The position numbers and the translations under genes are program-made. The notes beneath the pieces are model-generated. The model saw nothing but the letters and a program-made list of their open reading frames with translations, ran no database searches and was not told the DNA's origin. Shown here piece after piece: positions 27,597-29,543 of a stretch of 64,000 nucleotides of DNA. The DNA comes from Minisyncoccota bacterium (lineage in GTDB: Bacteria > Patescibacteriota > Minisyncoccia > Phycocordibacterales > UBA9973): NCBI GenBank assembly GCA_041659205.1, contig JBAZYS010000001.1:54090-118089 (forward strand), written 5' to 3'. How positions within the stretch are numbered: position 1 is the stretch's first letter; the number at the start of each line of letters is the position of its first letter.

Positions 27597-29543
27597 TTAT
27601 TGAAATTTCAATTTCTCCTCTTTGCCTTCTGTTATTTTATCTATTTGAAAAGCGGAATTTAGCTGGACGATGTCTTTTTTTGTAGATATTGAGCCATCTT
27701 TATTTAATTTTAATTCCAGAAGCATACCTTTCATTGTGGGGGCACTCCAAGATTGATCAAAGATAAAATTGCCAAGGGAGTATGCAATGAAACTCATGCA
27801 CGAACTTTGAGTGCAATCTTTTCTGCTGTAAACTTCTGTGTCCTCTATGACATGTGGATGTGTACCGATAATAATTTTCGCACCGTCGTCGACAGCTTTG
27901 TGGGCCAGATATTCTTGTCTTGCATTGTGAATGTCCTTATATTCATCACCGAAATGGAATGAGACAATGAGGTAGTCAACTTGTTTTGAAGCATTCTGTA
28001 TTATTTCATCGAAACGTGGGTTGTTCGCAAGAAGCAATCCAGCTTTGTCTATCCCAGCTTCCATGTCATTTGGTCCAACATCAGAAAAACCAAGGAAACC
28101 GATTTTCATTCCATATTTTTCAACGATAGTTGGGTTTTCTGCTTCAATACTATTATTTCCTCCACCAGTATAAAGTAGTTCATTTTCTTTTAAACCGGAA
28201 AGTGTATCAACGTATGCATCACGTCCCCAATCTCCGACGTGGTTGTTCGCCACAGATAAAACATCTATTCCAGCACCTTTTATTGCAGGAAGGACTGATG
28301 GATCCATTCTAAATGAATATAAGTTTTTTTTATCAATACCTTGGTCTGAAGCGACGCCTTCTAGGTTTGCAAAAGTTATGTCAGACTTTTTTATTAATTT
28401 TGAGATGGTATTTGATTTTTCGAAAAGTGCGGAATAGTCGTTATTGAAATTTTTTAAAACTGAATTTTTTACTCCTCGGGTGAGCATCATATCTCCAGCA
28501 AAAGATAAGGTAACAAAATTAGGATCTTTAATATCTGGCATTCCCACCTTCTCTTCCACCCAGTTCGTATTTGCATCAGCAATGCCACCGTAATATATGT
28601 TTTTCTTTAAATATTTTAAAATGTTTTCTACGTCTTTGTGTCGATCATTGCTTTGGAGGAGGGTAATAGCTATAGGACGGTTGTCATTTTGTCCTAATGG
28701 AAGAGAAAAAAGAGAAACGACAGTTTGCTTGGCGGCGTCTGTGTATCCGCTTTTTCCACCTAAATAACTTTCATCACCTAAAAATTGGCTAATGTTTGAC
28801 CAATTATGTTTTTTATTTGAGTAATTTCTTTTTGTTGTAATTGTAAATAAATCTTTTTTATTTTGGTAAACGTAACCGACGAGTTTAAACATATCAGAGA
28901 CAGTGGATTGATTGTTCGGAGAGAGTCCACTTGGGTCTTCGTAGGAAGTTTTAGTCATTAATAATTTTTCTGCCTGTTTATTCATCACTGAAAGAAAATT
29001 ATCTCTACCGAAATATTCTGCGAGTACTTCGGCGGCATCATTGCTCGATTCTAAAAGTAGGGGATATATTAAATCACTTACTTTTATTTTTTCTTTTAAT
29101 TTTAATTCACCATTTTTCCCTCTGGTGTTTAAAGCATTTTTGCTTACAATTGCAGAGTCATCTTCATTTGAAATTTCTGTGGTAACAAGTGCGGTCATGA
29201 GCTTAGAAGTAGAAGCTATGGGGTATCTCTCTTCTTGATTTTTTGAAAAAATAACTTCACCTGTTTTTAAATCACCTACCAGATATGCTAAAGCAGAAAC
29301 CCTCGGTTCTCCGTTGATGTCTTTATTAATATAGAAATATTGAGACTTTTTTTCACCATTTTTTGTCTCTGGTGAGATAAGTTGGATTACTGTAGCCTCA
29401 TTGTTTTTAGTTTGTAGATTTTTCGTATTTTTAAAAACTAATCCAAAAACAGATACGAAAAAAATACCCAGGAAAATAGCAGAAAATGACCAGGATATTA
29501 ATCTGATTTTTTCTTTAATTTTTTGATTTAAATTGTATTTCAT
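27597..29543 (-). CDS. fusion protein: D-alanyl-D-alanine carboxypeptidase (PBP5/6-like) N-domain plus CapA/PgsA-like metallophosphatase C-domain
   Basis: N-terminal TM, then SxxK in IASTSKLMTA, SxN in LLESSNDAA and KTG-like in GKSGYT. The C-terminal CapA-like signatures are ANLEGV, NNHVGDWG and IIGTHPHV. Confidence 0.75.
   Translation of the reverse strand: MKYNLNQKIKEKIRLISWSFSAIFLGIFFVSVFGLVFKNTKNLQTKNNEATVIQLISPETKNGEKKSQYFYINKDINGEPRVSALAYLVGDLKTGEVIFSKNQEERYPIASTSKLMTALVTTEISNEDDSAIVSKNALNTRGKNGELKLKEKIKVSDLIYPLLLESSNDAAEVLAEYFGRDNFLSVMNKQAEKLLMTKTSYEDPSGLSPNNQSTVSDMFKLVGYVYQNKKDLFTITTKRNYSNKKHNWSNISQFLGDESYLGGKSGYTDAAKQTVVSLFSLPLGQNDNRPIAITLLQSNDRHKDVENILKYLKKNIYYGGIADANTNWVEEKVGMPDIKDPNFVTLSFAGDMMLTRGVKNSVLKNFNNDYSALFEKSNTISKLIKKSDITFANLEGVASDQGIDKKNLYSFRMDPSVLPAIKGAGIDVLSVANNHVGDWGRDAYVDTLSGLKENELLYTGGGNNSIEAENPTIVEKYGMKIGFLGFSDVGPNDMEAGIDKAGLLLANNPRFDEIIQNASKQVDYLIVSFHFGDEYKDIHNARQEYLAHKAVDDGAKIIIGTHPHVIEDTEVYSRKDCTQSSCMSFIAYSLGNFIFDQSWSAPTMKGMLLELKLNKDGSISTKKDIVQLNSAFQIDKITEGKEEKLKFQ

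Follow-up and report, generated by a model that had tools for sequence, protein, structure and literature searches.

Introduction

Proteins of the CapA/PGA_cap family occur widely, and annotation routinely names them 'capsule biosynthesis' proteins, although what they do biochemically has never been settled. To our knowledge, MslH is the only PGA_cap protein with a solved structure and a biochemical assay. In this study, we analyzed a gene in which a PGA_cap domain is joined to a Peptidase_S11 (low-molecular-weight penicillin-binding protein, PBP) domain. The gene (27597..29543, minus strand) lies in a stretch of 64,000 nucleotides from a Minisyncoccota bacterium (assembly GCA_041659205.1, contig JBAZYS010000001.1, positions 54,090 to 118,089 of the forward strand), and this whole stretch is called the window below. 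We propose that the gene product is a membrane-anchored extracytoplasmic two-enzyme protein that would mature or edit peptidoglycan stem peptides in Paceibacteria (Patescibacteria). We give this reading a probability of about one half.

MslH is a Ca(II)-dependent epimerase that acts on the C-terminal Trp of a lasso-peptide precursor (PMC10406935). It has two dyads, His88/Asp91 and His295/Asp11, and its metal ligands are Glu44, Asn87, His259 and His261 (PMC10406935). According to a proposal by the authors of the MslH work, D-Glu enters poly-γ-glutamate (PGA) through the action of CapA (PMC8179263). The D/L ratio of Bacillus subtilis PGA was 5/95 with pgsBC alone and 75/25 with pgsA (PMC6029982). 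In both the MslH and the PGA substrates, the carbon to be inverted bears a free α-carboxylate.

Results

The fusion gene and its product

The fusion gene is a single unbroken open reading frame (ORF) with an ATG start, encoding 648 amino acids followed by a stop codon. From the ORF listing and a Pfam search, the product is composed of an N-terminal transmembrane (TM) anchor, the S11 DD-peptidase domain and the PGA_cap/CapA-type domain, in that order; all features of the gene given below are on the minus strand. The TM anchor (aa 15-38, LISWSFSAIFLGIFFVSVFGLVFK; 29430..29501) is the highest Kyte-Doolittle window of the protein and is part of a helix at aa 3-38 in the AlphaFold2 model. Since a Lys/Arg-rich N-terminus precedes this anchor, an N-in topology is predicted, with both catalytic domains outside the cell. 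A low-complexity tether follows (aa 39-66; 29346..29429), with pLDDT values below 50 at aa 34-65 and no conservation in 120 homologues. The inter-domain segment between the S11 and PGA_cap domains (aa 319-342; 28518..28589) contains the invariant columns G319, G320, T326 and W328 of the homologue alignment. The predicted template modeling score (pTM) of the model was 0.59, and because the pLDDT is low at aa 322-332, the model does not fix the relative orientation of the two domains. A scan for promoters and terminators around the gene gave results at chance level.

A preliminary description, made from the sequence alone, had read this gene as a fusion of a DD-peptidase with a CapA-like domain and had pointed to a sequencing error or frameshift as a possible cause of such an appearance. 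The fusion proved to be genuine. The 120 best database homologues (65-77% identity, 562-658 aa) all have both domains, and a relative is encoded in 544 GTDB genomes in a scan of one genome per species. A gene-calling, assembly or frameshift artefact was thus ruled out by the continuous ORF, the full-length orthologues in hundreds of independent assemblies and the 544 species genomes. A protein identical to the fusion is already on record (P0001, on a 239-kb contig) as 'CapA family protein [Candidatus Paceibacterota bacterium]', and existing pipelines label such proteins either 'CapA family protein' or 'D-alanyl-D-alanine carboxypeptidase/poly-gamma-glutamate capsule biosynthesis protein CapA/YwtB'.

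Counts of gene context given below rest on 80 fetched loci, out of the 544 genomes with a relative. All 80 are metagenome-assembled genomes of Patescibacteria, labelled Nomurabacteria, Paceibacterota or Minisyncoccia, and some third-party annotation assemblies among the fetched loci carry the generic label 'Saccharibacteria'.

The Peptidase S11 domain

The N-terminal half matched PF00768 (Peptidase_S11) at aa 78-277 with 120.6 bits against a cut-off of 27.6 (E 9.8e-35), and the domain as a whole spans aa 78-318 (28590..29312). The three motifs quoted in the preliminary description are all in place. SxxK is S111-T-S-K114 (29202..29213), with the acylated serine and the general-base lysine; SxN is S166-S-N168 (29040..29048); and K[ST]G is K264-S-G266 (28746..28754). 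S111, K114, S166, N168, K264 and G266 are invariant in the 120 homologues. Conservation was also assessed in a much more diverse sample, made up of 93 S11 domains and 86 PGA_cap domains of representatives of clusters at 50% identity. In that sample S111 and K114 were each kept in 91 of 93 S11 domains, and the residues of the other two motifs in 91-92 of 93.

The closest structure to this half is B. subtilis DacB/PBP5* (3mfd), both by sequence (E 3e-28, 32% identity) and by Foldseek (E 2.9e-18, root-mean-square deviation 2.0 Å). The earlier label 'PBP5/6-like' held for the triad and the family but not for the PBP5/PBP6 subfamily: the Pfam search of the protein gave no match to PBP5_C, the C-terminal β-sandwich domain, and the DacA, DacC and DacD equivalog models scored 47-55 bits against cut-offs of 610-765. 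Every NCBIfam equivalog model was in fact far under its cut-off, the best partial match being the PbpG endopeptidase model, so the sequence is compatible with either carboxypeptidase or endopeptidase activity. The S11 half is strongly predicted to be a serine DD-peptidase of one or the other kind.

The PGA_cap domain

The C-terminal half (aa 343-648; 27600..28517) matched PF09587 (PGA_cap) at aa 345-597 over the full profile (1-255 of 255) with 213 bits against a cut-off of 27 (E 6.2e-63). Both domain identities are therefore confirmed by Pfam hidden Markov models far above their cut-offs, and the suggestion that the C-terminal half might fail to match CapA models can be set aside. The domain shares 31.9% identity over 94% of its length with CapA of Bacillus anthracis pXO2 (E 1e-31). 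Among the top 50 Foldseek matches in the PDB, MslH was the sole non-PBP fold match (8gqb, E 2.5e-17), which assigns the domain a calcineurin-like fold.

In the phmmer alignment with MslH, Glu44, Asn87, His88, Asp91, His259 and His295 correspond to E395, N434, H435, D438, H530 and H564 of the fusion, respectively. MslH Asp11 falls outside the printed alignment, and its pairing with D351 is by motif position only. Counted in this way, seven of the eight functional residues of MslH are kept, and the eighth, His261, is replaced by the invariant Gly532. G350-D351 (28491..28496) corresponds to 'VGDIMM' of CapA, and D351 was found in 82 of the 86 diverse PGA_cap domains. N393-L-E395 (28359..28367) aligns with 'TNLE' of MslH and contains the metal ligand E395 (81 of 86). 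N433-N434-H435-V-G-D438 (28230..28247) aligns with 'ANNHAMD' of MslH and provides the Asn87 ligand and the His88/Asp91 dyad (H435 and D438, 85-86 of 86). H530-F-G-D-E534 (27942..27956) contains the His259 equivalent, the glycine in place of His261 and an invariant glutamate, and compares with 'HWGEEY' of CapA. H562-P-H564 (27852..27860) contains the equivalent of His295, the second catalytic base, and compares with 'GHHPHV' of CapA. The strings NNHVGDWG (aa 433-440) and GTHPHV (aa 560-565), on which the CapA assignment had first been based, are thus both present.

D351, E395, N433, H435, D438, H530, E534, H562 and H564 are invariant in the 120 homologues, and N434 is kept in 119. Both MslH-type His/Asp dyads are therefore present and invariant, as H435/D438 and H564/D351. 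Of the Ca(II) ligand set, E395, N434 and H530 are kept and His261 is lost, with E534 and H562 as extra invariant candidates. With H562, the fusion has a complete HxH pair of the canonical metallophosphoesterase type, which MslH lacks. Across the diverse sample, the catalytic and ligand residues of both halves were kept in at least 93% of domains. Because these residues are conserved in close and diverse homologues alike, both halves appear to be under selection as enzymes, and the protein is very probably a real two-domain enzyme with both sites active.

The word 'metallophosphatase' had been attached to this half. It is right as to the fold but not as to known activity: none of the PGA_cap proteins is a known phosphatase, and MslH is an epimerase. 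No match to Pfam Metallophos was found in the protein at E ≤ 0.01, and motif I reads GDMM, without a His. Metallophosphoesterase motifs III to V are present, and the likeness is at the level of the fold only, via MslH.

Domain partners of PGA_cap in relatives

Searched exhaustively with HMMER, a set of 1.84 billion cluster representatives yielded 1348 matches at E < 1e-30. Architectures were mapped for the best 150 of these 1348 representatives by local phmmer with domain exemplars and by Pfam. PGA_cap was present in 95 of the 150, and 57 of these 95 also carry one or more peptidoglycan enzyme domains in the same chain. The most frequent fused forms were YkuD-S11-PGA_cap (21 representatives; divergent YkuD may be under-counted, since in six S11-PGA_cap proteins an N-terminal stretch of 130-235 aa was left unassigned), S11-PGA_cap (16) and PGA_cap-VanY (8). 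They were followed by S11-PGA_cap-PGA_cap-VanY (3), S11-PGA_cap-VanY (2) and PGA_cap-Polysacc_deac_1 (2). Single representatives had S11-VanY-PGA_cap, S11-PGA_cap-deacetylase, PGA_cap-YkuD-S11, and, with the S11 match split in two, S11-PGA_cap-PGA_cap and S11-PGA_cap. The YkuD-containing forms likewise come from Paceibacterota/Patescibacteria.

The remaining PGA_cap proteins had PGA_cap alone (33 representatives), PGA_cap-PGA_cap (3) or Memo-PGA_cap (2). Proteins with no PGA_cap had S11 alone (40), YkuD-S11 (14) or S11-VanY (1). When only PGA_cap proteins that have no S11, and that were retrieved via the PGA_cap half only, are considered, 10 of 48 were fused to VanY or a deacetylase. The stem peptide's C-terminal D-Ala region is the target of S11, of the VanY/M15 carboxypeptidase and of the YkuD L,D-transpeptidase.

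In P0218 and P0246, the domain N-terminal to PGA_cap is Memo-like (AmmeMemoRadiSam system protein B), and an amrB annotation on a Rhizobium plasmid overlaps a PGA_cap match (H22). This is a second, unrelated association of PGA_cap.

The chromosomal slot

The gene rnr (RNase R; Pfam RNB, CSD2 and S1) lies directly upstream of the fusion gene at 29540..31525 on the minus strand. Its stop codon overlaps the fusion start by 4 nt (ttATGAaa; ATGA at 29540-29543), so the two genes are probably co-transcribed. The slot can be written as rnr → X ← smc-rnc-nusB/nudix, the fusion gene being the second of a co-directional pair with rnr. Among the 80 S11-PGA_cap loci, rnr was directly upstream in 78, and smc was present in 72.

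On contigs that reach smc, the slot held S11-PGA_cap (in the window and related loci), S11-PGA_cap-PGA_cap-VanY, or one of two split forms, a deacetylase gene followed by PGA_cap-VanY and a deacetylase gene followed by PGA_cap-PGA_cap. On shorter contigs that end before smc, YkuD-S11-PGA_cap, or PGA_cap-deacetylase followed by a VanY gene, was found directly downstream of rnr. PGA_cap is the constant element of the slot, and its partners are swapped, fused or split, which is a fusion/fission (Rosetta-stone) pattern. Fission products are not always neighbors: a YkuD-S11 gene (P0199, no PGA_cap) is located in another slot, and no PGA_cap gene lies near it, and a stand-alone PGA_cap gene (P0183) also stands apart from partner genes. 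In the window and the 80 S11-PGA_cap loci, no VanY, deacetylase or YkuD gene was found within 10 kb on either side.

The adjacency of rnr and a PGA_cap gene was also seen in distant relatives of other architecture, and a functional reason for this coupling is not obvious.

The capsule reading

In the reference operons, capA genes are embedded in capB-capC-capA-capD-capE (pXO2) or pgsB-pgsC-capA-ggt-capE (Bacillus thuringiensis). When pXO2 proteins were used as tblastn queries, CapB, CapC, CapD and CapE gave no match at E < 1e-3 in the window and 88 related loci (1.52 Mb), and the CapA query in the same search matched 87 of these loci. A Pfam scan of the 30 larger window ORFs found neither a Mur-ligase-like CapB nor CapC, and these ORFs were housekeeping and envelope genes only. 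Because CapB to CapE gave no matches and the reference capA genes sit in operons, the gene surroundings that mark a PGA synthetase subunit are lacking locally. The role in PGA or capsule processing, with which the preliminary description had connected CapA-like proteins, is thus not borne out for this protein, and the automatic 'capsule' annotation is probably wrong for genomes with the fusion gene. The accompanying idea of a coupled cell-wall activity, on the other hand, gained support, since PGA_cap of the relatives is fused or adjacent to YkuD, VanY and polysaccharide deacetylase.

Other genes in the window

A type IV pilin-like gene (27023-27577, plus strand), which has an N_methyl motif and a TTG start codon, runs towards the fusion gene and is separated from it by 19 nt. 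A pilin homologue occupies this convergent position in only 2 of the 80 related loci.

On the other side of rnr, four consecutive genes at 31593-40442 (plus strand) encode large secreted proteins of 460, 640, 937 and 725 aa, each with PG_binding_1 and one also with IPT/TIG. Since S16-KH-trmD is directly upstream of rnr in relatives, these four genes (about 9 kb) have the look of an insertion specific to the lineage.

An SMC-like protein of 746 aa, much shorter than canonical bacterial SMC, is encoded at 24768-27008 (plus strand). It is conserved at this position throughout the lineage, with lengths of 745-758 aa in L082, L090 and L093. A NusB-NUDIX hydrolase fusion of 316 aa (23075-24025, plus strand) is kept in 61 of the 80 loci and also in L082, L090 and L093. 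A PheS-like protein of 380 aa (17081-18223, minus strand) has a class II core and a C-terminal FDX-ACB domain with no adjacent pheT, which is the layout of the monomeric mitochondrial-type PheRS. At 7066-8962 (plus strand), a sortase gene comes directly after a gene for an Ice_binding-like and SpaA-type prealbumin-like protein (420 aa), which hints at a surface protein anchored by sortase or at a structure like a pilus. A TGT homologue of 504 aa (61496-63010, plus strand) gave four separate matches to the 357-position Pfam profile; this four-part match suggests that the protein may have large insertions.

Discussion

The association of PGA_cap with peptidoglycan enzymes, in fused genes and in a common slot, suggests the following course of events outside the cell. 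Judging from its family, the S11 domain would either trim pentapeptide to tetrapeptide stems as a D-Ala-D-Ala carboxypeptidase or act as a DD-endopeptidase. The PGA_cap domain would act on peptidoglycan too, not as a PGA synthetase subunit, and from the domain and gene context we think that this is probable. By homology with MslH, it may be a metal-dependent acid/base epimerase that uses the dyads H435/D438 and H564/D351 and inverts the Cα of a residue whose free α-carboxylate binds the metal. Three residues of the stem peptide fit this rule: the C-terminal D-Ala, as exposed by the carboxypeptidase; the γ-linked iso-Glu, which is the same chemical unit as in PGA; and the free D-center of diaminopimelate. 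We put forward epimerization as the chemistry of the domain only tentatively, and the odds are somewhat against it. Doubtful to a slightly greater degree is the full picture, in which PGA_cap would epimerize stem peptides outside the cytoplasm, once they have been exported, as one station of a production line shared with the DD-carboxypeptidase, L,D-transpeptidase and VanY/LdcB modules to which it is fused.

Several points weigh against our proposal. The link of PGA_cap to peptidoglycan is guilt by association, and the mechanism rests on association and one distant precedent. The NCBIfam MslH model (NF038314) scored 48 bits against a cut-off of 700, far below equivalog level. The site is of the CapA type and not of the MslH type, with Gly532 in place of the Ca(II) ligand His261, and the epimerase activity of CapA itself is a proposal. 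Because this clade, like CapA, keeps the HxH pair (H562/H564) and E534, a binuclear hydrolase-like metal site is conceivable, and the domain could bind two metals as hydrolytic metallophosphoesterases do. As for gene context, gene order in the lineage is conserved overall, so the adjacency of rnr is uninformative on function; stand-alone PGA_cap genes of the clade can occur in unrelated surroundings, as with P0183, which has no adjoining peptidoglycan enzyme; and the search for capB and capC covered 64 kb of this genome and 10 kb on either side in relatives.

The metal site leads to another explanation, that PGA_cap is a hydrolytic binuclear metallophosphoesterase that acts beside the PBP on a phosphorylated envelope substrate, for example, undecaprenyl-pyrophosphate from transglycosylation or phosphodiester-linked wall polymers. 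The calcineurin-like fold, the retention of motifs III to V (NNH, H530 and HxH 562/564), the acidic E395 at the bridging position and the first His of HxH, which is lost in MslH and kept in the fusion clade, are all in its favor. However, motif I has no His, the Metallophos model did not match, no PGA_cap member is known to us as a phosphatase, and the partners S11, VanY and YkuD target the C-terminus of the stem peptide rather than lipid or phosphate groups. We consider a phosphoesterase rather unlikely. It is also conceivable that the C-terminal half is a true CapA/PgsA subunit of PGA synthetase and that the fusion couples production or anchoring of a capsule to peptidoglycan. PGA of B. anthracis is attached to peptidoglycan, and the domain has 31.9% identity to CapA over 94% of its length, all of the CapA motif residues, and the same anchor and extracellular topology. 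This explanation is nevertheless improbable, for real capA genes are inside pgsB-pgsC-capA-ggt-capE operons, the searches of the window and related loci found none of the partner proteins, and the variable partners in relatives are all peptidoglycan enzymes and never PGA enzymes.

Patescibacteria are reduced, often episymbiotic, and presumed unable to make their own amino acids. The protein might therefore dismantle peptidoglycan or muropeptides of a host bacterium as food, with PGA_cap converting released or terminal D-residues. Modular combinations of carboxypeptidases would permit such stepwise trimming, and the window is rich in secreted PG_binding_1 proteins beside the fusion gene. On the other hand, the TM anchor tethers the protein to the cell's own membrane, the housekeeping slot conserved in 544 species is typical of a core envelope function, and there is no lytic glycosidase or amidase module, all of which make a salvage or attack enzyme distinctly improbable. 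That PGA_cap is a non-catalytic binding or scaffold module, or that the fusion is an artefact of gene calling or a frameshift, is scarcely credible: apart from the modest pTM and the uncertain domain arrangement we found nothing specific to suggest it, and the invariance of the putative catalytic and metal residues, their retention in diverse domains, the continuous ORF and the full-length orthologues speak against it.

Both domains of the fusion were already known, and its value is in the comparative pattern, seen across one large uncultivated lineage, which points a CapA-type domain to peptidoglycan. In the literature on PGA_cap/CapA with peptidoglycan or Patescibacteria, we found no paper that discusses the S11-PGA_cap architecture; a pseudomurein paper and a lipocone paper mention CapA or VanY in other contexts only. 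In Patescibacteria, about whose envelope almost nothing is known, the fusion may represent a cell-wall modification of a new class. If PGA_cap is a stem-peptide epimerase, it would provide the first known case of stereo-editing in a bacterial cell wall after assembly, and the CapA family, long an enigma, would gain a general role that is not confined to PGA.

The S11 half shares the SxxK, SxN and KTG triad with the class C low-molecular-weight PBPs (DacB/PBP5*, Escherichia coli PBP5/6 and PbpG/PBP7). Unlike PBP5, the fusion has neither the β-sandwich nor the amphipathic anchor at its C-terminus. An N-terminal TM helix attaches it to the membrane, and in place of the stalk there is a second catalytic domain.

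With CapA/PgsA (YwtB), the PGA_cap half has all motif residues in common, namely GD, N-x-E, NNH..D.G, H-[WF]-G-x-E-Y, HPH and YSLGNF.FDQ, and the layout of an N-terminal TM anchor and an extracellular domain is also that of B. anthracis CapA. The fusion differs from CapA/PgsA in that it sits behind an S11 peptidase and outside any pgsB-pgsC-capA-ggt-capE operon, and in that the neighbors and fusion partners in its relatives are peptidoglycan enzymes. With MslH of Streptomyces (PDB 8GQ9), it shares the Pfam family, the calcineurin-like fold, both dyads and three of the four Ca ligands, and the substrate logic, a residue with a free α-carboxylate, would match as well; identity in the structural alignment is just 16%. 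MslH is cytoplasmic and acts with the precursor of a ribosomally made peptide that is modified after translation (RiPP) and with MslB1, whereas the fusion protein is predicted to be extracytoplasmic. No RiPP context (precursor, MslB1/B2/C) was found around the fusion gene, the neighbors of which are rnr, the pilin-like gene, smc and rnc.

The nearest functional analogy to our proposal is BsrV, a periplasmic broad-spectrum racemase that works with L,D-transpeptidases in Vibrio cholerae. BsrV, a stereo-inverting enzyme outside the cytoplasm, is functionally coupled to transpeptidases of the YkuD type, which edit stem position 4, and in our proposal PGA_cap would be coupled to such enzymes as well. 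BsrV differs in being a pyridoxal phosphate-dependent racemase of free amino acids with another fold, and we know of no coupling of BsrV by gene fusion. The YkuD-S11-PGA_cap relatives, in contrast, would hold such a trio of activities in one polypeptide.

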